From IMG/VR virus record IMGVR_UViG_3300020045_008475, positions 1-44,806 of that record: a stretch of 44,806 nucleotides of DNA; one strand, 5' to 3'. Under the pieces are notes generated by a model, which ran no database searches, was not told the DNA's origin, and was given only the letters and a program-made list of their open reading frames with translations. The translations under genes were made by a program, and so were the position numbers. Below, in pieces: positions 4,368-38,194 of this stretch. Source of the DNA: a virus. Lineage: Duplodnaviria; Caudoviricetes. The stretch's first letter is position 1, and every line of letters begins with the position of its first letter.

Positions 4368-4477
4368 AACCATTCTTAACAACGTTTTTATTATCTTTGA
4401 AATACCGAGTAGTGCCGGTGACAACTTTTTATAATCGCGTCCTTGTTTGTTAGCACTACACATTCAGGGGCGCTTTT
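4362..4477 (+). promoter_or_regulatory. Box + promoter + kissing-loop leader upstream of recombinase gene
   Basis: Box 4362-4380; TATCTTTG 4392-4399; GTAGTGC 4409-4415 complementary to GCACTAC 4453-4459 in loop of hairpin 4437-4473. Confidence 0.75.
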
Positions 4478-4497
4478 AACTTTAATTCCTAATTATT

Positions 4498-5214
4498 ATG
4501 GAAAACAAATTAAATGCAGTTCAGGTAATGCCTGTAAGCGAAATTATGACAATGGCAAAGAACTTTGCCGATAGCGGAATGTTTACTGATGCGAAGCAAA
4601 TGGGTCAGGCATTCGTTAAAATACAGGCAGGTCAAGAAATCGGAATACCGCCATTTGCCGCAATGAGTGGGATACACATCATTCAGGGCAAGCCTACAAT
4701 TGGTGCCGGACTTATAGCAAGTCGCGTAAAAGGATCTGGCAAGTATGATTACGAAGTAAAAGAAATGAGCGACAAAAATTGCTCTATTGATTTCTTTCAG
4801 GGAAAAAAATTAATCGGCAACAGCTCTTTCAATCTTGAGGACGCAAAAAAAGCACAGACAAAAAACCTCGACAAATTCCCTAAAAACATGCTTTTTGCTC
4901 GTGCTATTTCAAACGGTGTTAAGTGGTTTTGCCCCGATGTGTTCGCAGGTCCGGTTTATACACCCGAAGAGATGAATACCGAATCGCAACCGCCAGAAAC
5001 AATTGAAACAACTTACGTTGATGTAACTGTTCAGGATGCGGAAACACACAAAGAAGAAGTGCGCCAAATTTTGCTTGCCGCCACTACAAAAGACGAACTT
5101 GCAGAGGCGTATAAATCTCTTGAAAAACAAGATCAAAAAGCGTGGGCAGAATACACAAAAAAACTAAAGGCGCAATTCGAACAGGCTGAAAAACAAAACC
5201 AGGACAATGAGTAA
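4498..5214 (+). CDS. RecT-like single-strand annealing protein
   Basis: KIQAGQEIGIPPFAAMSGIHIIQGKP, PKNMLFARAIS, VYTPEEM motifs. Confidence 0.75.
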   Translation: MENKLNAVQVMPVSEIMTMAKNFADSGMFTDAKQMGQAFVKIQAGQEIGIPPFAAMSGIHIIQGKPTIGAGLIASRVKGSGKYDYEVKEMSDKNCSIDFFQGKKLIGNSSFNLEDAKKAQTKNLDKFPKNMLFARAISNGVKWFCPDVFAGPVYTPEEMNTESQPPETIETTYVDVTVQDAETHKEEVRQILLAATTKDELAEAYKSLEKQDQKAWAEYTKKLKAQFEQAEKQNQDNE

Positions 5215-5647
5215 GCTGCAATTTTACGAGATGAGAGCCGAAGAAATGGCTGTAATGTATTCACCTGACTTTACTAAAAAGCAAGCCCAGAAAACTGGCT
5301 TGCAATTGGTACAGGATGTAATTGACAACGGAAATGTAGATAAATTACAGTTTGCCGCCAATCTATTTAGGCTTAACGAAGTTGTTTCTGCTGCCGCTAC
5401 TGAAATGCGTCAACACCTGCCATTTGAAAAAACATCCGTTTACGGTGTTGAGTTTTCGCCCGTGAATGGCGGAAACACAATCAACTACGAAGAGGATGAA
5501 GTTTACCGAACTTTAAAAGCTGATTTGGATGCCAGAGTTGAATTATTGAAACTCGCCCAAAAACAAGCAATTTTAGACACATACGGCAATGAAGTTCCAA
5601 AAGTCGGAACCACACCGCGAAAATCAAGTGTAACAATTAAATTTTAA
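5207..5647 (+). CDS. Hypothetical protein in recombination module
   Basis: 146 aa, between RecT-like and SSB-like genes. Confidence 0.75.
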   Translation: MSKLQFYEMRAEEMAVMYSPDFTKKQAQKTGLQLVQDVIDNGNVDKLQFAANLFRLNEVVSAAATEMRQHLPFEKTSVYGVEFSPVNGGNTINYEEDEVYRTLKADLDARVELLKLAQKQAILDTYGNEVPKVGTTPRKSSVTIKF

Positions 5648-5650
5648 ATC

Positions 5651-6028
5651 ATGGCTCAAGACAAAAAGTTCTACGCTACAAGTTTTGCATTGACAAAACT
5701 AAAACACGCAATCATAACGACCAAAAAGGGCGCGAAATGCTTGTTAATTCCAATAGATGACAACTACCTTTCAGAAAAGGACGGTGCGGTTTATATGCAA
5801 ACAGATATTTGTGTTCGAGAGGAAAAAGATACAAATGACAATTACGGTTTTGTAAAACAAAAACTCGCAAGCGACAAATGGAAGGCACTAGGAGACGAAG
5901 CAAAAACAATTGGAGATGCATTACCGTTTTTAGCAAATCTAAAGATATTTGAAAGAACTAATAACGACAATTCTGGCGCAACGGCAGACGCGTATGTTGA
6001 TGAAGAACACGATGATCTCCCATTCTGA
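5651..6028 (+). CDS. Putative single-stranded DNA-binding protein
   Basis: Beta-rich body with acidic tail ending DDLPF; position next to annealing protein. Confidence 0.65.
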   Translation: MAQDKKFYATSFALTKLKHAIITTKKGAKCLLIPIDDNYLSEKDGAVYMQTDICVREEKDTNDNYGFVKQKLASDKWKALGDEAKTIGDALPFLANLKIFERTNNDNSGATADAYVDEEHDDLPF

Positions 6029-6197
6029 TCCAACAGAACCCCTCCCGCCCCTAAACAAACGCCAATACACCACTTTAGCCGCTGTTGGAAAGGTGGTGGA
6101 GAGGTTGGGTGGTGCGGAATACGACAAGACCGTAGGTGATGTTTACCATAAAAAATACTGGTATCGATTAAAAAAAGGTTGGAATTTGTTGGGATAA
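6012..6197 (+). CDS. Small hypothetical protein
   Basis: ATG 6012; fills gap before helicase promoter. Confidence 0.45.
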   Translation: MISHSDPTEPLPPLNKRQYTTLAAVGKVVERLGGAEYDKTVGDVYHKKYWYRLKKGWNLLG

Positions 6198-6201
6198 GTT
6201 G

Positions 6202-6265
6202 TAACTTTAAACACTCTCTGAATCAAACTAATACGCCCTAAACAAGAGAGTTTTAGGGCTTTTTT
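6202..6265 (+). promoter_or_regulatory. Promoter + pseudoknot leader upstream of helicase
   Basis: TAACTTTA 6202-6209; ACTCTCT 6213-6219 complementary to AGAGAGT 6245-6251 in loop of GCCCTAAA/TTTAGGGC hairpin followed by T-run. Confidence 0.7.
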
Positions 6266-6270
6266 ATTTT

Positions 6271-7932
6271 ATGAAAGCATATGAATTATATGATTATCAG
6301 CAAAAAATGGTCCTCGACACTTTTGCCGCGTTGGATCAATATGAATCTGTTTTAAATCAATCAGCAACCGGATCTGGCAAAACAGTAATAATGTCGGACT
6401 TTATTCATAAATGGACCATACGAAACCCAAATAAAAAAGTATTGGTTTCGGTACATCGGGAAGAACTTGTAGAACAAACCTCTGATACTCTTGCAGAATT
6501 TGGAATACTGAATGAACGAATAACGCAAAAATCAAAGCCGAATTGGAATGCGGACGTTTATGTTGGAATGACGCAAACAATATGGTCTAGGAAATTATCA
6601 TTAGATATAGGATTGCTTGTAATTGACGAAGCACACGAACAAGTTCACGTTAAGTCGTTTTCACTATTCAAGAACGCAAAACGAGTAGGGTTTACAGCCA
6701 CCCCAATCATTAACAGACGAAATACATACTACGAATGCGCTTACTGCAACAAAAGGCACGAATCTAGGGAGATTTGTTGTTACAACGAAAAAGCCGAGAA
6801 ATGGTCCGCCCCTGTTTTGATGTCAGAAACTTACAATACAATTAACGTTGGTCCACCAATAAGGAAATTAATCGATCAGGGCGCATTGGTTGATGAGGTA
6901 GTTTACTGTTATGACTACTATTCCAATCTTGAGGCAAAAGAAAACGATGATTTTGATGAAAACGAAATTGCAGAGGAATCAGTAAAACATGATCAGAATG
7001 TACTGGAGGAATATAAAGAAAAGGCACTGGGGAAGAAGACAATGATATTCACCGCATCGACAAAGCAAAACTTGACTTTGGTAGATACGTTTTCAGAATA
7101 CCCGATTAGGTCCTATGATTCAGTAAACAACGACAGTTCCGAACGGAAAGGAATTGTACAATGGTTTAAAGATACCGATGGCGCAATACTCGTGTCAACA
7201 GGTACGTTTACAACAGGATTTGATGTCAGGGAAGTTGAGTGCATTATAATAAACAGGCCAACTAAATCACTTTCGTTATATCATCAAATTGTTGGGCGTG
7301 GTGCTCGGACCGTAAAGAATGGAATATATAAAGACCATTTTATATTAATTGACTTAGGGGGCAATGTTGCCAGACTAGGTAAGTGGTCAGACAATATTGA
7401 TTGGTCCAAAATATTCTACATTGGTTTGCATCCCGCAAAAAAGAAAAAAGAAATATTAGTCCAATGCGATGAGTGTGGATATAATTGGCTTGGACAGCAA
7501 AAAGAACCTTGTCCTGATTGTGGTCACTTAAATCAGGTTATTGCAAAAGAACCAATATTATCGTTATTTAGAGATCAGAATGAACTTGAACGTGTTGAAA
7601 AGAAAACAATGTTAGTTTCGAAAGTCCCAATGCCAAATGCTGACCAGATTGCAGCATATGTTTACAGGACCACAAACAGCAAAAACGATTTCTACAAGAT
7701 TTTGATTGATAAATACATTGATCTTTGGAGGTTGAATAATGTACCTATTGAAAAATATGAGCTTCGTAAACGTAATGGGACTATGCGTGCGAAAATCATG
7801 TCGTACCTAAAGCCTAGGTATGGAAAAGTGAACAAATTAGAACACGGAGTTCCGAGAACTTACGATTACCTTGTAAGTAAGATAGAAGAAAAACTTGAAT
7901 CGTGCTACATTGGCAAGCATATATCCCAGTAA
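6271..7932 (+). CDS. Superfamily 2 DEAH-box helicase with Zn-ribbon motifs
   Basis: ATGSGKT, DEAH, TAT, TTGFD, QIVGRGAR; CxxC pairs. Confidence 0.93.
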   Translation: MKAYELYDYQQKMVLDTFAALDQYESVLNQSATGSGKTVIMSDFIHKWTIRNPNKKVLVSVHREELVEQTSDTLAEFGILNERITQKSKPNWNADVYVGMTQTIWSRKLSLDIGLLVIDEAHEQVHVKSFSLFKNAKRVGFTATPIINRRNTYYECAYCNKRHESREICCYNEKAEKWSAPVLMSETYNTINVGPPIRKLIDQGALVDEVVYCYDYYSNLEAKENDDFDENEIAEESVKHDQNVLEEYKEKALGKKTMIFTASTKQNLTLVDTFSEYPIRSYDSVNNDSSERKGIVQWFKDTDGAILVSTGTFTTGFDVREVECIIINRPTKSLSLYHQIVGRGARTVKNGIYKDHFILIDLGGNVARLGKWSDNIDWSKIFYIGLHPAKKKKEILVQCDECGYNWLGQQKEPCPDCGHLNQVIAKEPILSLFRDQNELERVEKKTMLVSKVPMPNADQIAAYVYRTTNSKNDFYKILIDKYIDLWRLNNVPIEKYELRKRNGTMRAKIMSYLKPRYGKVNKLEHGVPRTYDYLVSKIEEKLESCYIGKHISQ

Positions 7933-8150
7933 AAGCGTGCGAATGTGTTACAAAAATGATCCAACTATACTTTATGTATTTTTATTTATCTTATTTTTTT
8001 GGTAAAAATTTACAATTAAAATTTATTTTTTGAAACAAGAATGCATTTCAAAGCGACATACGACACTTTTTATATAGAAATATAGTGTTTATAGGCTTTT
8101 TCAGCGTGTACAATTGAAATTTACCACAAAACACGTTGTAATTAAAAAAA
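7933..8150. other. AT-rich non-coding region, candidate replication origin
   Basis: Long ORF-free T-rich stretch between helicase and primase genes. Confidence 0.35.
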
Positions 8151-8158
8151 ATCTTTTG

Positions 8159-8270
8159 TATATTTACAACAGAGTTCATCTACCTCTATTAAGATACCGG
8201 TTAACCTTTAACCAAACGACCCTTAATTGAAGCCGAGTAGATGCGGACTAGATTAAGGGTTTTGTTTTTT
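8159..8270 (+). promoter_or_regulatory. Promoter + kissing-loop leader
   Basis: TATATTTA 8159-8166; CATCTAC 8177-8183 complementary to GTAGATG 8237-8243 in loop of ACCCTTAAT/ATTAAGGGT hairpin followed by T-run. Confidence 0.7.
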
Positions 8271-8276
8271 ACAGCA

Positions 8277-8600
8277 ATGAAAAAATCAACTATTAAATTT
8301 ATTATTGAGGGATTCAATAAAGATCAATCAATCAATCCTAAATGGATTTCACAAGTAACCGATGGGTTATTTAAAGAGTTTAACGCTCAAAAAAAGAAAA
8401 CGGAATTTGATTTTTTTATTGAAGAAAAGATCAAAGAGTCGAATCTAATCCGATTACGTTTTTGCAGACATCCAAAACTTTCTGCTGTTGAAGTTTACAA
8501 CAAAACAATTTCATACTTGAACGATAACGAGATTGTTTATCGAATAGTAAACGCATTCGATCCTTTGGATGAAAAAAATGCAATTATTGAAGTTTTATAG
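8277..8600 (+). CDS. Hypothetical protein
   Basis: ATG 8277 follows the leader; ATG 8241 lies inside the hairpin loop. Confidence 0.65.
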   Translation: MKKSTIKFIIEGFNKDQSINPKWISQVTDGLFKEFNAQKKKTEFDFFIEEKIKESNLIRLRFCRHPKLSAVEVYNKTISYLNDNEIVYRIVNAFDPLDEKNAIIEVL

Positions 8601-8610
8601 TAAATTTCAT

Positions 8611-8687
8611 TATATTTGACACCGTAAAAGATTTAGTCCTTTAATGATACGGAAGTCAGAGAGCCGTTGATTTAAAGGGCTATTTTT
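8611..8687 (+). promoter_or_regulatory. Promoter + leader hairpin upstream of primase
   Basis: TATATTTG 8611-8618; TAGTCCTTTAA/TTAAAGGGCTA hairpin followed by T-run. Confidence 0.65.
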
Positions 8688-8710
8688 ATTTAACCAACCA
8701 ACCAAACCAA

Positions 8711-11062
8711 ATGATCAATCCAATCGTTTCTATTTTTAAAGACGTACGACAGCCCAATAGCCCTTTTAATAAGTCGCTTTTATATTGTCTGGACCGAATA
8801 CGTGAGGGCAAGTCAAAAGATATGGTTGAGCAGTTGCGTAAAATGTCTGATGAGGATTATTTAAAAAACAAATCAAAATTGCCTGGATGTTGTTTCAACG
8901 GCAAGTTCACCAACAGGGCGGCATCTGGTTTGGTTGAGCACTCGGGTTTAATCATTTTGGATTTTGATAAGTTTAACACCACAGAGGACGCAACTATTTT
9001 TAAGGATTCAATTACATCCGATGAGTTTGTTTTTTCGGCTTGGATTTCACCATCTGCAAAAGGCGTTAAGGTTTTGGTTAAAATTCCTGCCGTTGCCAAA
9101 AATCACAAAGCATATTTCGAGGCGTTAGAAAAGTATTACAATTCAAATAACTGGGACGAATCAGGAAAGGATGTTTCTCGTTTTTGTTTTGAATCATACG
9201 ACCCTGATATTTATATCAATCAGGAATCAAGTGTATGGATTGAAATGGAAGAGCCAAACATTGAGGACATAGGCACCAATACTCCAATTGTTGCAATGAA
9301 ATCAGAAAATCAGATCATCCAAAATTTGCTCACTTGGTGGGGCAAAAAATACGGAATGACGATTGGTAAAAAAAATACAAACCTTTATATTTTGGCATCG
9401 GCATTTTTTGATTTTGGAATATCAAAAAGTGATGCGCTACACGAGTGTTTAAAATTCGATTCAGGTGGAAAGCAAAAAGAAATTGAATCGATTGTTAAAA
9501 GTTCATATAAAAAGCCGTCTGGTTTTGGTTCAAAGTTTTTTGAGGACCATGACACAAAAGAAAAGGTTGAAAAGATGGTTAGGTCCGGTAAGTCAAAAAA
9601 AGAAATTGAGGCGACTTATAAAGATATTGACCTTAGTTCTTTAAAGGATAATCTTGATATTGATGAATTTTGGTATTATAACGATAAAGGAAAAATACTA
9701 CTTTCAACACATAAGTTTAAGTTCTGGCTAGAGCAAAAGAACTTCTTTAAATACTATCCGTCTGAAAACTCTGGCACATTTACCTTTATAAAAAAAGACC
9801 AGAACTTGCTTGAAGAAACGAATGACAAAAGGATAAAGGATTTCGTTTTGAACAACATTTTAGAACGCGAGAACGTTGGCTACGGACCATACGATTTTAT
9901 GGCGTCAAATACAGGTTACTTCAAGCCCGATTTTTTAAGTATGCTCTCTACTACCGATGTGAAAATAAAGGAAGACACCGCGACAGAGTGTTATTTGTAC
10001 TACAACAATTGTGTTGTCAAAATTACAAAGGATTCAATTGAAGAAATTGATTATATTGATGTTGACGGTTACATTTGGAAGCGGCAAATAATAAATCGAT
10101 CTTTCAATAAGTCGGATCATCATTCAGCAGAGTTTAGAAAATTTATTTGGCTTATTTCTGGAAAATCGGTTGATAAATACAATTCTTTTAAATCAGTTAT
10201 TGGCTACCTATTGCACTCGTTTAAAACCTCGGCAAATAACAAGGCTGTTATTTTTAACGATGAAACCATTTCCGAGAATCCAAACGGGGGCAGCGGAAAA
10301 GGTTTATTTTGGAATGCTTTGAAAAACATGAAAAAAGTAGCATCAATTGACGGTAAGACTTTCGAATTTACCAAATCATTTCCATATCAAACAGTATCAA
10401 CAGATACGCAGCTTTTGGTGTTTGATGATGTCAAGAAAAACTTTTCTTTTGAATCTTTGTTTAGTTTAATTACCGAGGGCATAACTTTGGAATACAAAGG
10501 TCAGGACGCAATATCAATCCCTGTTGAAAAGTCACCAAAGATATTGATAACCACAAATTATACATTGGGCGGGTTGGGCGGATCTCACGAGCGAAGAAAA
10601 TTCGAAGTTGAAATGTCCGCATACTTCAATTTCAAACACACACCACTGGATGAGTTTGGCCATATGCTTTTTTCAGACTGGACCAACGATGAGTGGTTAC
10701 GTTTCGACAACTATATGATTAATTGCGTTCAGTATTACCTTGAAAAGGGACTTGTTAAGCATAACTTCAATAATCTTGAGGTCCGTAAGTTTATAAAGGA
10801 AACATCATTCGAGTTTTATGAATGGTCCTCAGATTTGGAAAACGTACCAATGAATGTTAGGTTAGATAAGTCTGAGTTGTTTGTAAAATTCATTAATGAT
10901 TTTCAAGATTTTAAAAAATGGCTGTCCCAAAAGAAGTTTACTCAGTGGATGGAGAACTTTGGCAAATATTATAAACACGATACACAAACAGGCAGGACCC
11001 ACTCAATGCGTTGGATTAGCTTTGGACCAACTGCTGATGACGATAATGATATTCCTTTTTAA
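8711..11062 (+). CDS. Primase-helicase (BT4734/VirE N-terminal-like domain, PriCT-like region, SF3-type P-loop domain)
   Basis: KSKLPGCCFNGKF, ILDFDK, ISPSAKGVK, DVSRFCFESYDP; NGGSGKG Walker A, VFDDV, ITTN. Confidence 0.88.
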   Translation: MINPIVSIFKDVRQPNSPFNKSLLYCLDRIREGKSKDMVEQLRKMSDEDYLKNKSKLPGCCFNGKFTNRAASGLVEHSGLIILDFDKFNTTEDATIFKDSITSDEFVFSAWISPSAKGVKVLVKIPAVAKNHKAYFEALEKYYNSNNWDESGKDVSRFCFESYDPDIYINQESSVWIEMEEPNIEDIGTNTPIVAMKSENQIIQNLLTWWGKKYGMTIGKKNTNLYILASAFFDFGISKSDALHECLKFDSGGKQKEIESIVKSSYKKPSGFGSKFFEDHDTKEKVEKMVRSGKSKKEIEATYKDIDLSSLKDNLDIDEFWYYNDKGKILLSTHKFKFWLEQKNFFKYYPSENSGTFTFIKKDQNLLEETNDKRIKDFVLNNILERENVGYGPYDFMASNTGYFKPDFLSMLSTTDVKIKEDTATECYLYYNNCVVKITKDSIEEIDYIDVDGYIWKRQIINRSFNKSDHHSAEFRKFIWLISGKSVDKYNSFKSVIGYLLHSFKTSANNKAVIFNDETISENPNGGSGKGLFWNALKNMKKVASIDGKTFEFTKSFPYQTVSTDTQLLVFDDVKKNFSFESLFSLITEGITLEYKGQDAISIPVEKSPKILITTNYTLGGLGGSHERRKFEVEMSAYFNFKHTPLDEFGHMLFSDWTNDEWLRFDNYMINCVQYYLEKGLVKHNFNNLEVRKFIKETSFEFYEWSSDLENVPMNVRLDKSELFVKFINDFQDFKKWLSQKKFTQWMENFGKYYKHDTQTGRTHSMRWISFGPTADDDNDIPF

Positions 11063-11064
11063 TT

Positions 11065-14371: not shown

Positions 14372-14466
14372 TATATTTGCGATTGAATACACGCCAAAAT
14401 GCCAGATACATACCAAAGGAATATTAACAAAGCCCATTCTTGCACACGTGCCAGAGGGGCTTTTTT
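14372..14466 (+). promoter_or_regulatory. Promoter + leader hairpin upstream of portal
   Basis: TATATTTG 14372-14379; AAAGCCC...GGGCTTT hairpin followed by T-run. Confidence 0.55.
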
Positions 14467-14478
14467 ACTTTTGTATTA

Positions 14479-27076: not shown

Positions 27077-27170
27077 ATTTAGAATGGTTCTTAATTCATT
27101 AGTGCTTATATTTGTAATTCACGACAATTAACTTTTAATGCCCTTGGTTTGTCGTGAGCCTTGGGCATTT
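27077..27170 (+). promoter_or_regulatory. Box + promoter + kissing-loop leader of RNA ligase cassette
   Basis: Box 27077-27095; TATATTTG 27107-27114; TCACGACAA 27119-27127 complementary to TTGTCGTGA 27149-27157 in AATGCCC/GGGCATT hairpin. Confidence 0.8.
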
Positions 27171-27179
27171 ATATTTATT

Positions 27180-28186: not shown

Positions 28187-28194
28187 TATATTTG
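28187..28194 (+). promoter_or_regulatory. Promoter -7 box restarting tail transcription (near-leaderless)
   Basis: TATATTTG 5 nt before ATG 28200. Confidence 0.6.
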
Positions 28195-28199
28195 CCACT

Positions 28200-29444
28200 A
28201 TGCAAAAGATTATAGACTACTCCTTTATAACCTTTCATCGTTCGCTTTCAGATGCCTACGGTAGCCTAAACGACCCACAACTAGCCACTATATTTAACCG
28301 AAGATTCGTTCAACTCGGTACAATGGACGAAACCCGCCAGCACACAAACACGGATTTTGACCTCAATTTCGGGCATCAGATACTTGCCGAACTTGTTGAC
28401 TGTTCCGATAACGTGCTTTTAAATGTAACCCCAAACTTTACCGAGTTCCAATTTGACCATTCCCAGACGGGAATCAAAAGCCTTTACTGGCAATTGAAGA
28501 ATATCGGGCGTTCATTTTCAAGACCCGTTCACCTAAAATTAACGCATTACGCAGTTGGAGCGAAGCAATCGGGATTGGTTGCATATTCTACGCCGTTTCA
28601 CGTGCAGGAGGATGTATCAGAAACAACGGAGTTCGACTACTGGAGTTACAAATTGTATGACGGTCAGGATTACGGAACGACACAGGGGCGAAATCGTATC
28701 AGGTTGCGAGGCACATACACCAAGCCGACGCGCGCAACCGAACAGCAAACATATACACAGGTCGGCAGGACTGGCAATGGTCAGGGCAACGTAATCCACA
28801 ACACGCCAACGCGGGTACTTAACTACAACTGGCTTGTTGAATATTACGACAATCACGGAATGGAAGCCTTTGAAAGTATGGTTAATTCTGCGGTCATTTA
28901 CGTATCAAAACCGTTCGAAACGGCAGGCACACGCGCGACAACCATTGTGCCAAGCACCGAGAACGTACTGGGCAGCAGCAACTTTTATTCTGGCGCGTGG
29001 GTAATGAATATCGACAGAACCGAAGTCTATGTGCAGCAGGGCGCAATCGGAACGGCTTTTGCGCTTGTACAGTCAACATTGCGACCGTTCGGATCGGTAA
29101 CACTTGCACAGCTTGCTTCGGATTCTTTGCGCGGTTTCTTCAATAAGGATATTACAATCGGCACAGGCACATTGACCGTCTGGGATGCCGACACCAATAC
29201 ACTTTTGGACACGTACACACAGGCGGATATTACCGCAGTCGGCACAAACGGATTTGAGATCACAAGTTTTGCCAATACAATCACCACAACTGGAAATTAT
29301 TTTATAAATTTCACGGGTGGATTATTTGTATCTTTGATCGGTGAGAATTATGCGGTTCCGAACAGTACGGAATGGACGTTTACTGCACAGGCGGCAGGGG
29401 ATTTTGACGAGGATGATTTTGATTCAACAGACTTTTTAACATAG
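28200..29444 (+). CDS. Tail structural protein with C-terminal Ig-like domain
   Basis: FNKDITIGTGTLTV...YFINFTGG...WTFT Ig-like pattern; acidic DFDEDDFD tail. Confidence 0.7.
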   Translation: MQKIIDYSFITFHRSLSDAYGSLNDPQLATIFNRRFVQLGTMDETRQHTNTDFDLNFGHQILAELVDCSDNVLLNVTPNFTEFQFDHSQTGIKSLYWQLKNIGRSFSRPVHLKLTHYAVGAKQSGLVAYSTPFHVQEDVSETTEFDYWSYKLYDGQDYGTTQGRNRIRLRGTYTKPTRATEQQTYTQVGRTGNGQGNVIHNTPTRVLNYNWLVEYYDNHGMEAFESMVNSAVIYVSKPFETAGTRATTIVPSTENVLGSSNFYSGAWVMNIDRTEVYVQQGAIGTAFALVQSTLRPFGSVTLAQLASDSLRGFFNKDITIGTGTLTVWDADTNTLLDTYTQADITAVGTNGFEITSFANTITTTGNYFINFTGGLFVSLIGENYAVPNSTEWTFTAQAAGDFDEDDFDSTDFLT

Positions 29445-30989: not shown

Positions 30990-32647
30990 TGCCAAAGCCA
31001 TTTTTAATAGTAAAGAACGCCAACGAGGAATACAACTGGTCTCATTTCGAGAGGGATGCGACGACGGGGAATGTTTTGAACGATTACTCGCTTTCTCCAT
31101 TATCGATGGAGACCACAAACGGTGTTTTTCAGGTTCAATCCTTAAACGGTGCGGAGAAGCAAGAGTACGTTTGGACTGATATTGAATTACGAGACGATTT
31201 CAGCGGGGTAACTGGAACGCCATATTTTCCGACGAGTGCCAATGATTTGCGTAATTGGCTCATTTCTAAAAAATATCCTGCATATGCTTATTTGTTCGCT
31301 ACTTCTGGCGGCATACAAAGCATCGTTGAGGGAACAAACATTACTGTTGACAATACAGATCCGTTAAATCCAATTGTATCTTCTACTGGCGGCGGTTTTT
31401 CATCACTCCAACAAATGTACGATGACAATCCAAACAAAGTTCAATTGACGGACGGCACGAATACTATGTCGCTTGATCCGCTGAATGTGTTTGTCTCTAC
31501 CGACTTGGGTGCTGGAGAGGGTTCGGTTGTAGGCAGTCAGGATGTAAGCGGATTAGGGGCTTATACACAGATTGAAAATGATGGTTCTAACTTTTTGGCC
31601 AAGGTTATTGCGGAGGATAGCGGAAACGGAACTGGCGCACAATTGGTAAGCACAGGCAAAATCCTAATAACAAGAGCAGACGGGGCAGTAGAAATAAAAT
31701 CCGATAACATATCTGCCAACCAAGATCACCAACTACCAGACGGAACAGGCACATACGGCCTTTCCGTAAAAGTCAACGGTGTTTCATATCCTTTCAACGC
31801 GGACGGGGAAACAGATGATATTCCAGTTGGCGGCGGTGGTGCAGTTTCGTCGGTAAACAGTCAAACGGGCGCGGTTGTACTTGATGCCGACGATATATCA
31901 GACAGCGGCACAACAAATAAGTGGACTAATTCAACTGAAAAAGCGACCTGGAACGGCAAACAAGACGCGTTAAGTGGAACAGGTTATAGTAAGTGGTCTG
32001 GAACAACCCCGGGTTATGTTTCGCAGATTCCATTATCTACGGATGTTACGGGCGTTTTGCCTGCTGCAAATGGCGGGGCGGGAACGGTAAACGGTATTTT
32101 AAAAGCAAACGGGTCAGGAACGGTAAGTCAAGCGGTAAGCGGAACGGATTACAATGTTTCGCAGGTGCAGAACACCGTTACAACACCGTCAACAACACTT
32201 GCATCGAGCACTACTGCAATGAAAACGTATATTGACGCCAAGAGATACGCCACATACGAGTTTAAGGCTTCTGCGTTCTCACCTCCAGACAATTCAATAT
32301 ACTATTTTTCAAATAACAACAATGCCGCGCCACAGACCACATCTGCGACCCAATACGTTGTAGCCACCTGTCCTGCAACTACGATAAATTGGAGTTGTAC
32401 GATACGGATCACGTCTATTGTTTCGTCAGGCGAGGATGCCACAATAAAGATAAGGAACATAACCACAGGTGTTACCGTTACGCTCACGACAACAATGGAG
32501 ACAAATGCGGCTTTCAATATGGCTTTCGGAACTGCGGCATTGGTAATATCTGCGGGGGACACACTTGAGGTAATATTTGAAGCCCCTACATACGCAACAA
32601 ATCCAACAAACCTTTTTATGTACACGTTGGTCAGTACTAATAACTAA
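30989..32647 (+). CDS. Tail fibre/receptor-binding protein
   Basis: IVEGTNITVDNTDPLNPIVS, VSSVNSQTGAVVL, WNGKQDAL, VTGVLPAANGG fibre motifs. Confidence 0.8.
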   Translation: MPKPFLIVKNANEEYNWSHFERDATTGNVLNDYSLSPLSMETTNGVFQVQSLNGAEKQEYVWTDIELRDDFSGVTGTPYFPTSANDLRNWLISKKYPAYAYLFATSGGIQSIVEGTNITVDNTDPLNPIVSSTGGGFSSLQQMYDDNPNKVQLTDGTNTMSLDPLNVFVSTDLGAGEGSVVGSQDVSGLGAYTQIENDGSNFLAKVIAEDSGNGTGAQLVSTGKILITRADGAVEIKSDNISANQDHQLPDGTGTYGLSVKVNGVSYPFNADGETDDIPVGGGGAVSSVNSQTGAVVLDADDISDSGTTNKWTNSTEKATWNGKQDALSGTGYSKWSGTTPGYVSQIPLSTDVTGVLPAANGGAGTVNGILKANGSGTVSQAVSGTDYNVSQVQNTVTTPSTTLASSTTAMKTYIDAKRYATYEFKASAFSPPDNSIYYFSNNNNAAPQTTSATQYVVATCPATTINWSCTIRITSIVSSGEDATIKIRNITTGVTVTLTTTMETNAAFNMAFGTAALVISAGDTLEVIFEAPTYATNPTNLFMYTLVSTNN

Positions 32648-32661
32648 AAAAAACAATACCT

Positions 32662-33153
32662 ATGAAAAAAACATTACTTTTATTTTCCGCAGCATTAGTG
32701 GTTTTGAGCCTATCCAGCTTCAAGACAATGCAGGAATACCTTTCTTTACCGCAATGGGTAACCGTTGAGGCCTTAACCGTATCTGGTATGGGTCAAAACT
32801 CAACATGGCCGACCGCAACACCAACAAATGTACTGGGTGTCGGATCAAACGGCGACGTTGTAAAAATGCCAATCCCGACTGGAGCAACATTCCTTTCAAA
32901 CGTAACGCTCACCCAATCCGCTCCCTTGGTGTTGCTTGGTGCAGGCGTAAGGAAAGCGACAATTACGGGCGTGACCGGATTGCTTGCAGGCGACCGGGTT
33001 GTATTGACACCCACGGCATCAACACCAACGGGATATGCGATTGGCGATTGTGTCGCCACAGCCAACGGAACGCTTGAGGTTTCCTTTACCGCCCCTGCAC
33101 TCGCAATAGGCGCGTCGTTCTCGATCCCGTGCAAGGTCACAGTTTTCAGATAA
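32662..33153 (+). CDS. Hypothetical protein with signal-like N-terminus and beta-rich domain
   Basis: 163 aa after tail fibre. Confidence 0.65.
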   Translation: MKKTLLLFSAALVVLSLSSFKTMQEYLSLPQWVTVEALTVSGMGQNSTWPTATPTNVLGVGSNGDVVKMPIPTGATFLSNVTLTQSAPLVLLGAGVRKATITGVTGLLAGDRVVLTPTASTPTGYAIGDCVATANGTLEVSFTAPALAIGASFSIPCKVTVFR

Positions 33154-33218
33154 AAATACCACACATAACCGCCCGATGCAAAAACGCCAGTTTGTTGAAG
33201 GTTTAAATTTTTGATGGT

Positions 33219-33473
33219 ATGAGAAAAGCCAAACGTTACCTAGTATTTTCAATGATACTAGCAATATTGGGTGTGTTTACCTGCGCGGGAGGCGCATGGA
33301 CTTACAGCCACCCAAAACCAATCAATCCAATCCCAGCCTCGACAATTATTGTAAGGGATCGGATAAACGAAATTACATTCAAGAATCATTGGAATGATGG
33401 TGAAATCTTTATCCAACACCCTGACGGCACGTGGTCGCGGGGAATATTTATCAACTATAAAAACAAGAATTAA
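33219..33473 (+). CDS. Hypothetical membrane-anchored protein
   Basis: N-terminal hydrophobic helix. Confidence 0.55.
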   Translation: MRKAKRYLVFSMILAILGVFTCAGGAWTYSHPKPINPIPASTIIVRDRINEITFKNHWNDGEIFIQHPDGTWSRGIFINYKNKN

Positions 33474-33475
33474 AA

Positions 33476-33697
33476 ATGAGTATCTTAAGATTTTTGGCAA
33501 CAGGAAACGCAAACCAAGTGGTATTGCAATGGCAGAATGACAATGCACTAATGAGCAAGGCAGATTTCAAGGCTTTGGACAATGCTGCGGTAACGGATGA
33601 GGCAACTTGGGGCGCAGGCAATGTATTTACCGAAAGCCTTGACTTGGTTGCAATTGGCCCACGCGGAACAAAGCCACACGGAAACACACCCTTGTAA
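33476..33697 (+). CDS. Hypothetical protein
   Basis: 73 aa; TAATG overlap with next gene. Confidence 0.6.
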   Translation: MSILRFLATGNANQVVLQWQNDNALMSKADFKALDNAAVTDEATWGAGNVFTESLDLVAIGPRGTKPHGNTPL

Positions 33698-34146
33698 TGC
33701 TTAGGCGAATATCAAACAACAACCTTATAATCCTGCTGACGGCATACGCGGCAGGATTATTTGTCATTGAGGCACTCGGTAGGTTATGGTACATCAAATC
33801 ATCGTCATTGGTGGACGAGCTTTTTTATTTCGCGGTTGTTTGTGTGTTGGCAATAAGGAACGCCTATGAATCGACAGTTTGGGATCGAAAGATTTACAAG
33901 GTTATGCTTGGGGCTAATTTTGCCCTATCCGTTATCGGGATATACGATGCACTATGTGTTTGGGGCATCAAGAGCAGTTATTTGTTTATTGGCTATACGG
34001 ATAAGGAGTTTGGCGAGGTAGAGCAACAGATAAGCCAATACACGGGCTATATGTACTGCAACTTCATTGTTTGGATGATTGTCCTTACACCTTTGTTCGC
34101 CTTGGCATTGGTGAAGGGAACGGATTATTTGCGCAGGACAAGTTAA
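33697..34146 (+). CDS. Multi-pass membrane protein
   Basis: About four hydrophobic segments. Confidence 0.7.
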   Translation: MLRRISNNNLIILLTAYAAGLFVIEALGRLWYIKSSSLVDELFYFAVVCVLAIRNAYESTVWDRKIYKVMLGANFALSVIGIYDALCVWGIKSSYLFIGYTDKEFGEVEQQISQYTGYMYCNFIVWMIVLTPLFALALVKGTDYLRRTS

Positions 34147-34247
34147 TTTATATTCATTCTAAACATATTTATTTATAAGTTTACAACTCGCGAAAACTAA
34201 CAATTTAAATGCCTTCGGTCTTTCGCGAGCTGGGGGCATTATTTTTT
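34146..34247 (+). promoter_or_regulatory. Box + promoter + pseudoknot leader
   Basis: Box 34146-34164; TAAGTTTA 34176-34183; CTCGCGAAA 34187-34195 complementary to TTTCGCGAG 34221-34229 in hairpin 34208-34240. Confidence 0.8.
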
Positions 34248-34261
34248 AAAACTTATTTATT

Positions 34262-34459
34262 ATGAAAAAAACAGGAATTATTGCATTCGCTATTTATAGC
34301 TTAATTTTTTTATGCTCGGTTTATGGTTGGGCAAGATGTGTTTACAAAATGGTAAAATGTAACTGGGAGCCAATTGGAAAGGCAGAGGTGCTTTACACGG
34401 TAGGAACATTTACAGGTGTTGGGGCTATCATTGGTTGGTTTGACATTGAAGATAATTAA
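34262..34459 (+). CDS. Small two-helix membrane protein (moron)
   Basis: YGW...C.WE...KAEVLYTVG...GAIIGW; own promoter and terminator. Confidence 0.75.
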   Translation: MKKTGIIAFAIYSLIFLCSVYGWARCVYKMVKCNWEPIGKAEVLYTVGTFTGVGAIIGWFDIEDN

Positions 34460-34513
34460 TACAATAAACGACCCCAATCCAACGTTATCCACAGTTAAGT
34501 TGAGTTAATTCCC

Positions 34514-34546
34514 GCCACCAAGTCACCTACTGCTTGGTGGCTGTTT
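34514..34546 (+). terminator. Probable intrinsic terminator
   Basis: GCCACCAAG...CTTGGTGGC followed by TGTTT. Confidence 0.65.
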
Positions 34547-34547
34547 A

Positions 34548-34585
34548 ATTTATATTGGTTCTTAATAGGGAATTGCGTAGGTTTG
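34548..34585 (+). promoter_or_regulatory. Box + promoter of tmRNA gene
   Basis: ATTTATATTGGTTCTTAAT 34548-34566; TAGGTTTG 34578-34585. Confidence 0.75.
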
Positions 34586-34590
34586 TACCA

Positions 34591-34889
34591 GTTCGTTGAT
34601 ATGTTATTGAAAACTGTTTGGACGCGGGTTCGATTCCCGCCAACTCCACAATTTCAAGTTTGTAGTTAGCTTGTTATTTTCGCTATACAATTATGGAAAG
34701 AGGTAGTCGCTATTTTAACTATGGAAAGACGCCTCTAGTTTTAGGGGTTGACTGGTTTTGACAGCAGTACAGTAGGTAATAAGGAGAGCCAAAAACAATA
34801 ACAGGCAAAGTAATTAGCCTTAACAATGCACCGCTCAGAGCAGTAGCATAAGTTACGAAACTTAGGGAGCGCGAAAGGCTCCCTTTTTT
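34591..34889 (+). ncRNA. ssrA: Circularly permuted two-piece tmRNA (acceptor piece ~34591-34648, intervening segment 34649-34743, coding piece 34744-~34885)
   Basis: T-arm GCGGGTTCGATTCCCGC and CAACTCCA lie upstream of GGGGTTGACTGGTTTTGAC; 7-bp acceptor stem with G3-U70; tag frame GGC...TAA 34804-34851 = GKVISLNNAPLRAVA. Confidence 0.9.
34864..34889 (+). terminator. tmRNA terminator
   Basis: AGGGAGC...GCTCCCT followed by T-run. Confidence 0.85.
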
Positions 34890-34956
34890 CTTTACAATTT
34901 TTACCCCCGTTTCGCGTTATTTAATATCTTTGGCTTACTAATCAAACATTTACACT

Positions 34957-35241
34957 ATGCTAAAATGGCTTAAAGAGCGCAACAACTGGCACTATATCGG
35001 TGGCGCAATACTTGAGATTACCTGTTACCTTATTGCATTCCAAGCCTATCAGTTCATCGGAAAGTTCCTGATCGCGACAATCATTGTTTCAGTCGGTTGT
35101 TTTGTTTGGGAAATGTTCTGGGCAGATTACAAAAACATCAAGCAGGATATGAACGACGTGAAAAAAGGAATCATCGCGGCAGTTGTAACTGGCGTTTTGT
35201 GTGTGATTACCAACTACCTTATAGTCGGAGAGTTCCGATAA
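34957..35241 (+). CDS. Membrane protein of lysis region
   Basis: Three hydrophobic helices; TATCTTTG promoter at 34925-34932. Confidence 0.7.
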   Translation: MLKWLKERNNWHYIGGAILEITCYLIAFQAYQFIGKFLIATIIVSVGCFVWEMFWADYKNIKQDMNDVKKGIIAAVVTGVLCVITNYLIVGEFR

Positions 35242-35273
35242 TTCATTAACCAATTTTAAAAACCAACAACATT

Positions 35274-35552
35274 ATGGGAAAAACAATCTTATCAGAACAG
35301 TTTAGCTGGAACTTGCGCGACTTCTTCAAGGGCGCAATCGTCGCTGTATTGGCAACCATCGTTCCAATCGTAAACGCCACAATCGAAAGCGGTGTACTTA
35401 CCTTTGATTGGAAGGCAATTGGCTTGGCGGCATTGGGTGGCTTCACGGCTTACCTAATCAAGAATTTCCTTGAGCCTACAAAAGTCATTGAGGTCAAGCC
35501 AACAGAGGCCAAGATCGAAGCGGCTAAGGCCAAGATAGAGAACCAAGCGTAA
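35274..35552 (+). CDS. Putative holin
   Basis: Two TM helices (DFFKGAIVAVL, FDWKAIGLAALGGFTAYLIKNF) and charged C-terminus. Confidence 0.7.
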   Translation: MGKTILSEQFSWNLRDFFKGAIVAVLATIVPIVNATIESGVLTFDWKAIGLAALGGFTAYLIKNFLEPTKVIEVKPTEAKIEAAKAKIENQA

Positions 35553-35728
35553 TGAAAGTCGAGTTCTACCGTACAAAGGTATGGAAGCAATGGCGGTGGC
35601 GAATCAAAGCCGCAAACAACCGAATTATTGGTTCAAGCTCGGAAGGGTATTGGAACAAAAAAGACTGCGAACACAATCTTGAGTTGAATTATAACGCCTT
35701 AAAACAATACTATGCAAACAACAACTAG
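35552..35728 (+). CDS. YegP/DUF1508-family small protein (58 aa, not in ORF track)
   Basis: QWRWRIKAANNRIIGSSSEGYWNKKDC matches the family pattern; TAATG-coupled start. Confidence 0.8.
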   Translation: MKVEFYRTKVWKQWRWRIKAANNRIIGSSSEGYWNKKDCEHNLELNYNALKQYYANNN

Positions 35729-35799
35729 CGCCCCACAATACGATCCCAACAACATGGACTGCACAGCGACAATCGTTGCGCCAAATGGCAATGAAACCA

Positions 35800-36033
35800 A
35801 TGCGTAAGTTCACAAAGGCAACAGAAAACACCGCGAATGATCTTGTAGGGGAGATTGTTTGCGGGTTTTTATTTGCGATCATCGCAGTCAATATGCTGTT
35901 CTTTGATTTGTGGCACGACTGGACAGGTGTTAAGGCAGATAAATTCTACGGGTCATTGATAATCCTGGCAATTCCGTTTGCGTTCGGCTTTGTGATGTTC
36001 CGCGTGAGGGTTGGCAAGAAATTGAGCCCGTAA
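35800..36033 (+). CDS. Small two-helix membrane protein
   Basis: Two hydrophobic segments; ATG 35800. Confidence 0.6.
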   Translation: MRKFTKATENTANDLVGEIVCGFLFAIIAVNMLFFDLWHDWTGVKADKFYGSLIILAIPFAFGFVMFRVRVGKKLSP

Positions 36034-36166
36034 TTTATATTGTTTCTAAACAAAATAGGATATATGTTTGCAAAGTAGTCCGTCAGCTACTTCTAAAATT
36101 TAGTTAGTAAATTCTAACTTTGAGAAAAGGCTTGGCATTCTGACGGATGTTGAGCCTTTCTCTTTT
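36033..36166 (+). promoter_or_regulatory. Box + promoter + kissing-loop leader
   Basis: Box 36033-36051; TATGTTTG 36063-36070; TCCGTCAG 36079-36086 (loop of AAGTAG/CTACTT) complementary to CTGACGGA 36140-36147 in hairpin 36122-36162. Confidence 0.8.
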
Positions 36167-36180
36167 AAAATTATAGTGTT

Positions 36181-36795
36181 ATGCCAACAGGTTACACAGC
36201 AGGAATCTTAGATGGAACCATTAAAGAATTCCCCGATTTTGCAAAATTATGTATGAGGGCTTTTGGAGCCACGGTTATGATGAGAGATGAACCTCTTTAT
36301 AAAGAATGGGTGCCACGGGTTCCAAGTGATTATCATCTAAAAGCAATTGAAAAAGCAAATTCAGATCTTGAAAAAGCTAAATCATCTTCCGATGAAGATA
36401 TTTTAGCAACTGTTCGTGTCGATTTGCTTAAAAGTAAATATTATCATGAAAAAAGCATTATTGATTGTAGTGAAAAACATAAACGACTTGACAACATTCT
36501 TATTAAAGCAGAATCCTTTATCCCACCAACACCAGAACACGAAGGCATAAAGGAATTTATGATTAAGCAGTTGAAAGACACTATTTCTTTTGATGCATCT
36601 GATAGTTATCACGTAGAAAACCTTGAAAGAATAATCTATAAATTGAATTCACTTTCAGCCAGAAACGAACGCGCTGAATTAATTTCAATAGCAAATAAAA
36701 AATTATCTTACCATACTCTTGAATACGAAAAAGAATTACAGCGTTGCGAAGAATCAAACAAATGGGTTAATGAGTTTATTTCAGCAATACAATAA
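36181..36795 (+). CDS. Hypothetical coiled-coil phage protein (moron)
   Basis: MPTGYTA...CMRAFGA...MRD N-terminus; AT-rich; own promoter and terminator. Confidence 0.8.
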   Translation: MPTGYTAGILDGTIKEFPDFAKLCMRAFGATVMMRDEPLYKEWVPRVPSDYHLKAIEKANSDLEKAKSSSDEDILATVRVDLLKSKYYHEKSIIDCSEKHKRLDNILIKAESFIPPTPEHEGIKEFMIKQLKDTISFDASDSYHVENLERIIYKLNSLSARNERAELISIANKKLSYHTLEYEKELQRCEESNKWVNEFISAIQ

Positions 36796-36801
36796 CACCA
36801 C

Positions 36802-36830
36802 AATCCCGCCCTCAACAAGCGGGATTTTTT
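36802..36830 (+). terminator. Intrinsic terminator
   Basis: AATCCCGC...GCGGGATT followed by T-run. Confidence 0.85.
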
Positions 36831-36912
36831 ACATATAACAATTTATTGCCACAGTGAACGTTCTAATAAATAAAATTGACTAAGTTTGTAATTAGATTAG
36901 CCCCAATGCTAT

Positions 36913-37329
36913 ATGAGCCAAAAATTGAATGCGATTAAGAGTTTTGCCAATTGGTTCAAACAGCAGGGACGTACATACCAAACAACCATAGTAATTGGAG
37001 TTGCCGCTGTATTTTGCGTAACAACCGTTTTTGGTGTAATAAGCATCGTGAAAACCGTTGAGGCCACAAGGTACAGCGACAAGTGCAAAGACTATGACAG
37101 GATCGTTAAGGATTTTGCCGATTACAAAACGTTGTCGGAGACGAGATTGGCAAATCAGGAAAGGGAGTGTAAGGAAGACGTTGATTATGTAAGAAAGGAA
37201 AACGATAACCTGAAAATTGAAAATCGGGTTATGGTTCGTGAAGCACTTGCGGATCTAAAGCAAAAAGTCAAGGATTACGAACATCAACTTTCTTTAAAAA
37301 ATGGTAAAAAACTACTCAAAGATGAATAA
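36913..37329 (+). CDS. Membrane-anchored coiled-coil protein (lysis region)
   Basis: One TM helix plus coiled coil; TAAGTTTG promoter at 36881-36888. Confidence 0.65.
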   Translation: MSQKLNAIKSFANWFKQQGRTYQTTIVIGVAAVFCVTTVFGVISIVKTVEATRYSDKCKDYDRIVKDFADYKTLSETRLANQERECKEDVDYVRKENDNLKIENRVMVREALADLKQKVKDYEHQLSLKNGKKLLKDE

Positions 37330-37606
37330 CGCCAGTATCATCATAACTGCCGCGTTTCTGGGCTTGATAGCCGCAGGGGCAACGCGAAAGGAAAACAACC
37401 AGCCGATCATTAAAGCCACACCACAGCTTTCGCAGATTGCGCCAAATTACAACTACCACGCGCCAAAGGAACAACTGCCCGATTACAAGGCCTTACAGGA
37501 TGCAAGGGATTGGCTGAAAAGCGAAACAGAAAGGCTAAAAGCATTGAACAGGCATCGACAAGACAGCATTGAAAGAGCCAATAGGGTTTTGGTTGCTGAA
37601 AATTAA
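37322..37606 (+). CDS. Membrane-anchored/secreted hypothetical protein
   Basis: N-terminal hydrophobic helix. Confidence 0.6.
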   Translation: MNNASIIITAAFLGLIAAGATRKENNQPIIKATPQLSQIAPNYNYHAPKEQLPDYKALQDARDWLKSETERLKALNRHRQDSIERANRVLVAEN

Positions 37607-37615
37607 CAATAGCCT

Positions 37616-38113
37616 ATGACACCAGATCAATTCGTCAAGTACTACTATCCTCACGCCAAAAAGGTACAGGACAAAACAGGGATTTCTGCAATCGCACTAC
37701 TTGCACAATCCGCACACGAAACGGGGTGGGGCAAAAAGGCTGTCGGAAATATGATGTTTGGCGTAAAAGACACGGACGGGTTAAATGGAAACGAGCAGTT
37801 GATTACAACGACCGAGTTCCACAGTACAAACAAGGTGAAATATCCCGTCATACTTTCAATAACGAAAGTGGGAGCCAGATTCAAATATCTTATAAAGGAT
37901 TGGTTTCGAAAATATGACAGTGCACAGCAATCTTTTGCCGACCACGCAGAATTTATACGAAAAAACCCGAGATACAATCTTGCATGGACTATGCGAGCAG
38001 ACCCAAAATTGTTTTTGCAACTGGTTGCCCGTGCAGGATATGCCACTGACCCTAATTACGAAGCCTTGATGATGCAAATGATTACGTCCGTAAAGAAACG
38101 ACTTCCGAAGTAA
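37616..38113 (+). CDS. Endolysin, GH73 glucosaminidase (FlgJ-like)
   Basis: AQSAHETGWG, NMMFGVK, FRKYDS, NPRY, GYATDPNY. Confidence 0.93.
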   Translation: MTPDQFVKYYYPHAKKVQDKTGISAIALLAQSAHETGWGKKAVGNMMFGVKDTDGLNGNEQLITTTEFHSTNKVKYPVILSITKVGARFKYLIKDWFRKYDSAQQSFADHAEFIRKNPRYNLAWTMRADPKLFLQLVARAGYATDPNYEALMMQMITSVKKRLPK

Positions 38114-38194
38114 TTTATATTCATTCTTAACACCTAACTCCCTACATTTGACATATCGATTAGTAACCCGCCCTCATCGATTTGAGGGCTTTTT
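38113..38194 (+). promoter_or_regulatory. Box + promoter + pseudoknot leader
   Basis: Box 38113-38131; TACATTTG 38143-38150; ATCGAT 38155-38160 complementary to ATCGAT 38176-38181 at GCCCTCA/TGAGGGC hairpin followed by T-run. Confidence 0.75.

Follow-up and report, generated by a model that had tools for sequence, protein, structure and literature searches.

A mobile, phage-enriched family of kissing-loop terminator leaders with freely varying pairing codes

Background

In guanidine-IV (GGAM-1, mepA motif), as described in the passages of PMC7736828 and PMC11611296 on its mechanism, a kissing contact leads to read-through, and growth of the stem shortens the linker and hinders the kiss. In phage P4, an RNA derived from the leader terminates the phage's own replication operon, according to the part of PMC4825925 that deals with it. 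The 2023 catalogue of viral RNAs lists, in its table rows, an unnamed candidate, DNAVirus_8377 (105 nucleotides [nt], 88 sequences, terminator predicted), with Bacteroidetes as host where one is given and mostly freshwater origin, upstream of HNH, NUMOD4, AP2, and GIY-YIG genes (PMC10690425). Here we describe leaders of a related architecture in the tailed-virus record IMGVR_UViG_3300020045_008475 (Duplodnaviria; Caudoviricetes); the window that we analyzed is the entire record, 44,806 bases with direct terminal repeats. In these leaders, a short 5′ segment that follows a promoter box is complementary to the loop of a downstream terminator-like hairpin. For one weak riboswitch candidate, the relevant passage of PMC11109978 puts forward the same logic of a terminator-loop pseudoknot. 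Throughout, X is the 5′ segment, X′ is its complement in the terminator-like hairpin loop, and the code is the set of paired letters; leaders are numbered by box position.

Pairing in the leaders of the window

The seven pairs named in an initial annotation of this DNA are all exact reverse complements at the coordinates below. The arrangement that it described was also found: X lies 3-10 nt past a TAnnTTT(G/A) box, and X′ occupies the apex of a hairpin, behind which come a T-rich run and an ATG.

Leader 1: 4392..4497, + strand; box 4392-4399; 5′ hairpin 4404-4419 with X (4409-4415) in its loop; terminator-like hairpin 4437-4473 with X′ 4453-4459; T run 4474-4477; RecT-like gene from 4498.
Leader 2: 6202..6270, + strand; box 6202-6209; X 6213-6219; hairpin 6235-6259 with X′ 6245-6251; helicase gene from 6271.
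Leader 3: 8159..8276, + strand; box 8159-8166; 5′ hairpin 8171-8187 with X 8177-8183; linker hairpin at about 8198-8213; terminator-like hairpin 8220-8259 with X′ 8237-8243; 107-amino-acid (aa) open reading frame (ORF) from 8277.
Leader 4: 27107..27179, + strand; box 27107-27114; X 27119-27127; hairpin 27140-27166 with X′ 27149-27157; RNA ligase gene from 27180.
Leader 5, a paralogue of leader 4: 34176..34261, + strand; box 34176-34183; X 34187-34195; hairpin 34211-34237 with X′ 34221-34229; 65-aa ORF from 34262.
Leader 6: 36063..36180, + strand; box 36063-36070; 5′ hairpin 36073-36092 with X 36079-36086; a further hairpin within the linker; terminator-like hairpin 36129-36156 with X′ 36140-36147; 204-aa ORF from 36181.
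Leader 7, the weakest: 38143..38207, + strand; box 38143-38150; palindromic X 38155-38160; hairpin 38170-38189 with X′ 38176-38181; ORF from 38208.

Taken together, the pairs exceed the complementarity of shuffled controls. The 24 nt following each box were dinucleotide-shuffled in 2,000 trials per locus and scored for reaching the observed pairing length, which happened 163 times for leader 1, 858 for leader 2, 160 for leader 3, 17 for leader 4, 14 for leader 5, 11 for leader 6, and 36 for leader 7. No single short pair is strong by itself; it is the combined signal that counts, with a Fisher's combined p of 8e-6 for the seven pairs and 5e-5 when two further loci, 8611 and 14372, are included. 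In a control with eight other hairpins of the window and a wider, 75-nt search window, the best matches reached 4-6 base pairs (bp). Leader 7 is the weakest named member: its X is a 6-nt palindrome, and no homologue was found among 696 fetched loci. Its hairpin (38170-38189) is also the first terminator-like hairpin past the endolysin gene.

In four cases X had been placed in a hairpin loop of its own, and three of these 5′ hairpins hold. AGAG/CTCT covaries among homologues, ACCG/CGGT recurs within its leader family, and a homologue has a different pairing set in place of AAGTAG/CTACTT. The fourth, TAATT/AATTA at 27114, is not retained in homologue L649 and was rejected.

The loci at 8611 and 14372 had been listed as weaker versions. 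The first proved to be a true family hairpin whose 5′ partner is lost, and the second is not a member.

Primase leader without 5′ partner: 8611..8710, + strand; box 8611-8618; hairpin 8636-8680, loop code 8656-8663; primase-like gene from 8711.
Portal leader, not a member: 14372..14478, + strand; terminator-like hairpin 14432-14460.

The 8611 hairpin shares 94% identity with the hairpins of L044 and L045. There the matching 5′ segment is retained, whereas in the window the 8-nt partner is gone: the only remaining match is one of 5 bp to the leader's own stem, equaled in 1,130 of 2,000 shuffles. The segment that replaces it, 8622-8630, is predicted to pair with the 5′ arm of the terminator (-5.2 kcal/mol; 53 of 2,000 shuffles). 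Among 15 long, promoter-led, ORF-preceding hairpins that have no kiss, the one at window 8611 is the only one that resembles a family hairpin, as judged by eye. The portal leader at 14372 has a 4-bp match (1,312 of 2,000 shuffles) and was rejected. The portal leaders compared with it (36 of 60 loci shown), also judged by eye, have a small-hairpin-plus-terminator design and no kiss. They appear to form a separate late-operon leader, seen upstream of portal genes in L321-L372 and also in L465, L469, L470, and L473: a promoter, a small hairpin whose loop region reads GTGAAG or GTGATA, and then a terminator before portal or head genes. This leader may be the target of a late antiterminator; window 14372 occupies the same position, with no clear copy of it.

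The initial annotation had also assigned a different code to each locus. Among nine loci of the window, the leader's own loop is indeed the best partner for six of the seven X segments. The exception is leader 2, whose segment at 6213 forms 8 bp with the 8611 loop (through 6214-6221) and 7 bp with its own. Because the window's primase leader has lost its own 5′ segment, the helicase leader (6213-6221) holds the only perfect partner of 8656-8663. In L044 and L045, one code is common to the helicase and primase leaders. Outside coding sequence, the complement of each 8-9 nt code occurs only in a leader loop.

Homologous leaders and covariation

Homologues were found for six of the seven leaders, with compensated code changes in five. 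The initial annotation had taken shared shape without shared letters as built-in covariation, and a real covarying leader family bears it out. The code of leader 1 recurs unchanged before a NUMOD4 gene in L189, and 12 further rows carry different codes. The helicase leaders in L044, L045, L050, and L062 have two codes. In the family of leader 3 (nine rows, one from the window), all 63 kiss cells are paired and both sides have changed at three of the seven pairs, while in slid controls pairing drops to 35-48%; a homologue with a changed code is found in the cultured phage FCL-2. A 21-row family has both-side changes at six of its eight kiss pairs. The codes of the paralogous leaders 4 and 5 differ by two compensated pairs, and their family with L649 and L651 has both-side changes at three of nine pairs. 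L649, the homologue of leader 4 with a compensated change, precedes a different gene; the leader 5 homologues L599 and L682 carry another code, and the leader 6 homologue L462, in genome G001, has a compensated two-letter change. Pairing was a criterion in choosing the alignment rows, which biases the percentage paired but not the code diversity; the counts of covarying pairs ignore kinship of the rows.

Many of the 25 upstream regions shown for primase genes (28 loci) have the same design in other letters. None of the 40 regions shown upstream of RNA ligase relatives (43 loci) contained a recognizable leader; thus, the leader is not tied to the RNA ligase gene. In agreement with the suggestion that these leaders belong to no named family, no match to the covariance models of Rfam 15 was found, either for the window leaders at E values up to 5 or for 11 related loci at gathering score. 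The comparison took in c4 antisense, Flavo-1, Pedo-repair, and Bacteroidales-1; c4-a1b1, which has no Rfam accession in the table, lay outside it.

Distribution in viral and cellular DNA

We searched IMG/VR with a promoter-plus-terminator-end pattern that ignores the loops and took 120 of about 440 viral stretches, which gave 103 distinct sites, 83 with a hairpin. Among these listed matches, 40 of the 83 promoter-led terminator hairpins pair over at least 7 bp, versus 114 of 6,806 swapped pairs. An ORF begins within 50 nt of 46 of the 47 kissing leaders (at least 6 bp), as opposed to 6 of 36 other promoter-terminator units. The same pattern in cellular genomes (GTDB; 120 of about 1,100 stretches, many from non-Bacteroidota genomes) yielded pairing in 1 of 51 hairpins, a near-repeat of phage leader L149; a chromosomal element was rejected on this count.

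A hairpin-only pattern (120 of about 1,300 stretches; 115 distinct sites, two dropped at locus edges) makes no use of the 5′ segment. Among the listed matches, a terminator-like hairpin encloses 32 sites, each with an upstream partner of 7-8 bp; together they use 19 codes, and a promoter box is present in 30 and an ORF start in all 32. Of the other 81 sites, seven reach 7 bp. A descriptor that requires at least 7 bp with 3 G/C was then applied to 356 loci. It accepts 81 of 391 distinct promoter-led hairpins, with 63 codes among the 81 and an ORF behind 76. Because the descriptor misses real members (6202 and 34176 of the window; L462 and L599), these counts are lower bounds.

In a Pfam analysis of 47 downstream ORFs, many of them cut at the locus end, 10 matched DUF6291, 4 a primase N-terminal domain, 4 homing nucleases, 1 a helicase, and 4 other families; 24 had no hit. 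DUF6291 presumably heads replication initiators. Among cultured phages, FCL-2 has one leader and mumin9-1 two, located before a NUMOD4 nuclease gene and a helicase-VirE operon, whereas the descriptor found no element in Leef_1, phi46:1, FPSV-S1, or P12024L, and BLASTN of two leaders against cultured phages returned no homologue. Since leaders of one type are found with different genes downstream and different promoters upstream, the leaders appear to move as modules. Together, these surveys describe a real family of kissing-loop terminator leaders that is mobile and enriched in phages. Because the letters are free, sequence-based RNA catalogues miss the element.

Two further observations were made in these sets. 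L354 and L365 contain kissing units of 10 bp that no ORF follows; these may be stand-alone small RNAs of related design. In the L477-L594 hairpins, the terminator has an internal loop, mostly TGAA opposite GGA(T), that suggests stacked G-A pairs; we take TGAA/GGA to be such a motif.

A kept shape with free codes is what one would expect if, as the initial annotation proposed, a factor reads the shape: a protein or small ligand would hold the kiss and open all leaders together at one stage of infection, much as lambda promoter-terminator units are released by an antiterminator. The downstream genes, largely of replication functions, suit such a factor, and a binding surface could be formed by the GT near the start of one loop (67 of 81 leaders) and by the 6-nt A-rich segment that ends the 5′ loop in 27 of 32 members of the L477-L594 family. 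On the other hand, the GT edge is missing in four window leaders, and the paired letters vary (63 codes in 81), whereas guanidine-IV, as far as its descriptions go, needs highly conserved loop nucleotides. Moreover, in a tblastn comparison none of 92 window ORFs matched all seven element-bearing genomes, which argues against a phage protein and leaves a host factor as the possible reader. We consider a stabilizing factor of either kind unlikely.

Folding order and tether geometry

Predicted folds suggest that the leader changes state as it grows. Just past X′, the minimum-energy fold contains the X:X′ helix in 75 of 80 leaders, a result partly built in by selection, and the best fold of the full leader contains the terminator in 76 of 80 (L165, whose best match lies on a stem, was excluded from all geometry counts, hence 80 rather than 81). 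On these predictions the leader is a two-state switch. The kissing hairpins are long, with a median of 43 nt versus 24 nt in plain terminators. The unpaired tether has a median of 17 nt against a helix span of 27.5 bp, and the median ratio of span to contour length is 0.78; in the tightest family, a tether of 15 nt faces 31 bp, and the ratio is at least 0.9 in 27 of 32 members, at or near full extension. Where linkers are 26 nt or longer, the excess is folded into a hairpin in 21 of 22 cases versus 9.5 expected, about half of them from one family. By this modeling, the tether is usually too short for the kiss and the full terminator to exist at once. Linker-to-5′-arm pairing exceeded shuffles in 34 of 80 leaders (p 0.17), and a general antiterminator of that type was rejected as not enriched.

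The position of X, 3-17 nt from the box, and the 5′ hairpin that starts 68 of 80 leaders (3 of 7 in the window) would suit a kiss that protects the 5′ end of the mRNA, another role considered in the initial annotation, or one that forms on the terminated RNA or makes a compact small RNA, and that either does not oppose termination or aids it. For about half of the leaders, a tether stretched across the full stem would be feasible, though at some cost. However, tether length is bounded above and does not suffice in the tightest family, which argues against a closed, stable fold; a gene follows nearly every element, unlike in plain promoter-terminator units; and essential primase and helicase genes lie behind it. 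This role is therefore quite improbable.

It is more improbable still that the hairpin is no terminator and that the fold governs translation of the gene 9-43 nt downstream, in the manner of the pseudoknots that control translation of rep in some plasmids. The short, fixed distance to the ATG (median 20 nt) would fit, as would weak T runs at three window loci; T-rich runs are common before start codons in Bacteroidota. Yet in 67 of 81 leaders the stem ends in G/C and the next 8 nt contain 6-8 T (the filter required 5), as expected of an intrinsic terminator with a G/C-ended stem and a U run, and the start region is unpaired in the predicted folds.

A proposed mechanism

The idea of leaders with the shape of an attenuator before replication and accessory genes is supported, and we suggest the following course of events. 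X would be made first, and the terminator apex with X′, 20-60 nt later, could kiss it before the 3′ arm exists; the polymerase footprint is about 14 nt, and with a long hairpin X′ would already be clear of the polymerase when transcription reaches the U run. The kiss would block zipping of the lower terminator stem, whose closure would need the unpaired tether to span 25-31 bp of stacked helix, and the gene would be read. A released, terminated leader would have a full stem and two free loops, either of which could pair with a nascent copy free of tether strain. Aborted leaders of the same locus might thereby capture the nascent partner in trans and restore termination, so that expression would be a burst that limits itself, separately for each code, as promoter output or genome copy number rises. 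Such a burst would suit replication genes and mobile nucleases.

These steps do not have the same standing. Complementarity, covariation, the position between promoter box and gene, the near-obligatory 5′ partner, and the bounded tether have been shown. From the geometry and the guanidine-IV precedent, the kiss probably opposes termination, which would make the leader a ligand-free kissing-loop antiterminator. The closer in trans is reached by elimination. No antisense promoter was enriched in a consensus search (a box within 100 nt downstream in 5 of 76 leaders versus 6.2 expected, and in the linker in 2 of 81), no window protein is shared by all seven element-bearing genomes, the paired letters are free, unlike those of a ligand pocket, and the terminated leader remains as the only non-coding RNA with the right letters.

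Several observations weigh against this reading. Start sites, termination, and the direction of the effect are all predicted, and the geometry assumes a straight stack with 2.8 A per bp and 5.9 A per nt. Tether length does not rise with helix span in the 80 leaders; the correlation is negative. The T runs are weak in places, with 4 T at 4474 and interruptions at 27167 and 34238. Aborted leaders could pair mutually and neutralize each other, and capture in trans needs roughly micromolar RNA, as estimated from kissing rates. Kiss cells changed in 38 of 167 cases versus 23 of 82 for upper-stem cells, so the codes change no faster than ordinary stems and show no sign of selection for new codes. 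Codes within a genome resemble one another about as much as codes of different genomes do (3 of 56 cross pairs of at least 6 bp versus 341 of 7,832 across genomes), and two leaders in G002 are one letter apart in seven.

The last of these points, that codes evolve as ordinary stems with no avoidance within a genome, would be natural if the same kissing antiterminator had no trans input and read-through were fixed by whether kissing or zipping comes first. Polymerase speed, temperature, or magnesium might tune this balance; magnesium favors the kiss in guanidine-IV according to its descriptions. All of the structural evidence fits such a fixed setting as well. Still, a weaker promoter would set a fixed level more simply. 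An extended promoter found in the window (see below) occurs at 89 distinct sites, 66 without a leader hairpin and 23 with one, and 16 of these 23 pair over at least 7 bp versus 44 of 506 swapped pairs, a figure inflated by near-duplicates. Thus, the leader is an add-on to promoters of the same type that is nevertheless kept with strict pairing. A purely kinetic setting is possible, but on the whole we think it is not the likely answer.

Because the codes show neither avoidance nor sharing and change no faster than stems, and because the tether does not scale with span, we advance the full model, a kissing antiterminator shut in trans by its own aborted leaders, only tentatively, and its chances would seem to fall somewhat short of even. 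A little more doubtful is its widest form, in which phages of Bacteroidota would share a widespread, mobile switch of about 60-110 nt that needs neither protein nor ligand, one RNA acting as sensor, signal, and actuator and the code addressing the feedback to each locus.

If the model is true, loci with a common code, such as the helicase and primase loci here, would talk to each other, and co-infecting phages or nucleases of the same code could silence one another. Phages with no evident repressor or antiterminator gene would time their replication and nuclease genes by RNA alone, and a loop-to-terminator kiss would be a general expression platform that needs no conserved ligand pocket. The dozens of natural codes would also be a ready library of compact attenuators; natural orthogonal attenuators are scarce and are named as a bottleneck in the relevant part of PMC3753616. 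The cultured carriers mumin9-1 and FCL-2 put the element within experimental reach.

Genome setting

All large ORFs of the window are on the + strand. PHROGs annotation identified RecT, helicase, primase/helicase, methylase, terminase, portal, tail, RNA ligase, and endolysin genes, and a search for a tyrosine integrase found none in the window and none in genomes G000-G005. We infer a flavobacterial host from the primase relatives among cultured phages and from the TAnnTTTG promoter boxes, which we take to be the flavobacterial consensus. The sole regulator-like gene among the scanned ORFs encodes a Cro/C1-type helix-turn-helix protein (PF13443; 40323-40559) and lies behind its own promoter-like box. 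At 28187-28200, a promoter box stands 5 nt 5′ of the ATG of a 414-aa ORF, likely giving a leaderless message.

The extended promoter, AATTTA-N6-TTCTWAA-N12-TAnnTTTR, has six copies in the window (4361, 27076, 34145, 34547, 36032, and 38112), has none in 100 shuffles, and is present in 101 viral stretches. Five copies drive kissing leaders, and the sixth drives a transfer-messenger RNA (tmRNA). An SOS box was rejected as the origin of the motif: by eye, the six promoters do not match CTAA-N5-TTAG, the box given in the pertinent passage of PMC8565304. The tmRNA gene is of the permuted, two-piece kind (34591-34851 within 34578-34883; Rfam RF04321, 68 bits versus a cut-off of 47) and has its own promoter box and terminator-like hairpin. 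A second permuted tmRNA adjoins a tRNA in L046 (17620-17851). The phrase "permuted tmRNA" did not occur together with phage terms among the literature matches listed.

Comparison with known systems

A full-text literature search, with most subscription papers outside it, found no description of phage kissing-loop terminator leaders. The catalogue entry DNAVirus_8377 may overlap with the family described here: compared by its table rows, it agrees in length, terminator prediction, host, and downstream gene classes, although the passages describing it in PMC10690425 mention neither a kiss nor a mechanism.

P4 immunity (seqA, CI, seqC) has the logic proposed here, in that an RNA derived from the leader acts in trans to stop the phage's own replication genes. 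However, as its treatment in PMC4825925 indicates, one processed antisense RNA acts there in lysogeny on targets on both sides, whereas the phage leaders have one short pair each at many loci and no downstream copy of the target (no repeat of X was found between hairpin and gene start at any window leader). In pT181-type antisense attenuators, loop-loop recognition likewise decides termination and specificity resides in changeable loops; unlike here, where antisense promoters are not enriched, a separate RNA from the opposite strand is needed (passages in PMC3753616). The zipper-type attenuator of pLS20 also belongs to the leader of a mobile element and antiterminates through pairing of a 5′ segment with the terminator region, but in the sections on it in PMC13401043 the leader measures 456 nt and extends one long stem, as opposed to about 55-110 nt and a loop-loop contact.

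Guanidine-IV is the tested precedent of the architecture; thus, the phage leaders are not without known relatives. On the one hand, its descriptions in PMC7736828 and PMC11611296 show a kiss between the loops of a 5′ hairpin and of an intrinsic terminator that a linker separates, in about 90-105 nt, with kiss and full stem competing by linker strain and no strand exchange; the same complementarity between 5′ hairpin loop and terminator loop is present in the phage leaders. On the other hand, those descriptions give guanidine-IV highly conserved ligand-binding loop nucleotides, where the phage letters vary freely, and place it before exporter genes (sugE and others), mostly in Firmicutes, where the phage leaders precede replication, nuclease, and accessory genes, with no exporter gene among the 47 downstream ORFs in Pfam; the 5′ hairpin is also optional in the phage leaders. 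The leaders likely work like the guanidine-IV expression platform while differing from it in the conserved loop and the genes controlled. What appears to be new here is a phage leader family with free codes; the kissing-loop/terminator architecture itself is known from guanidine-IV.

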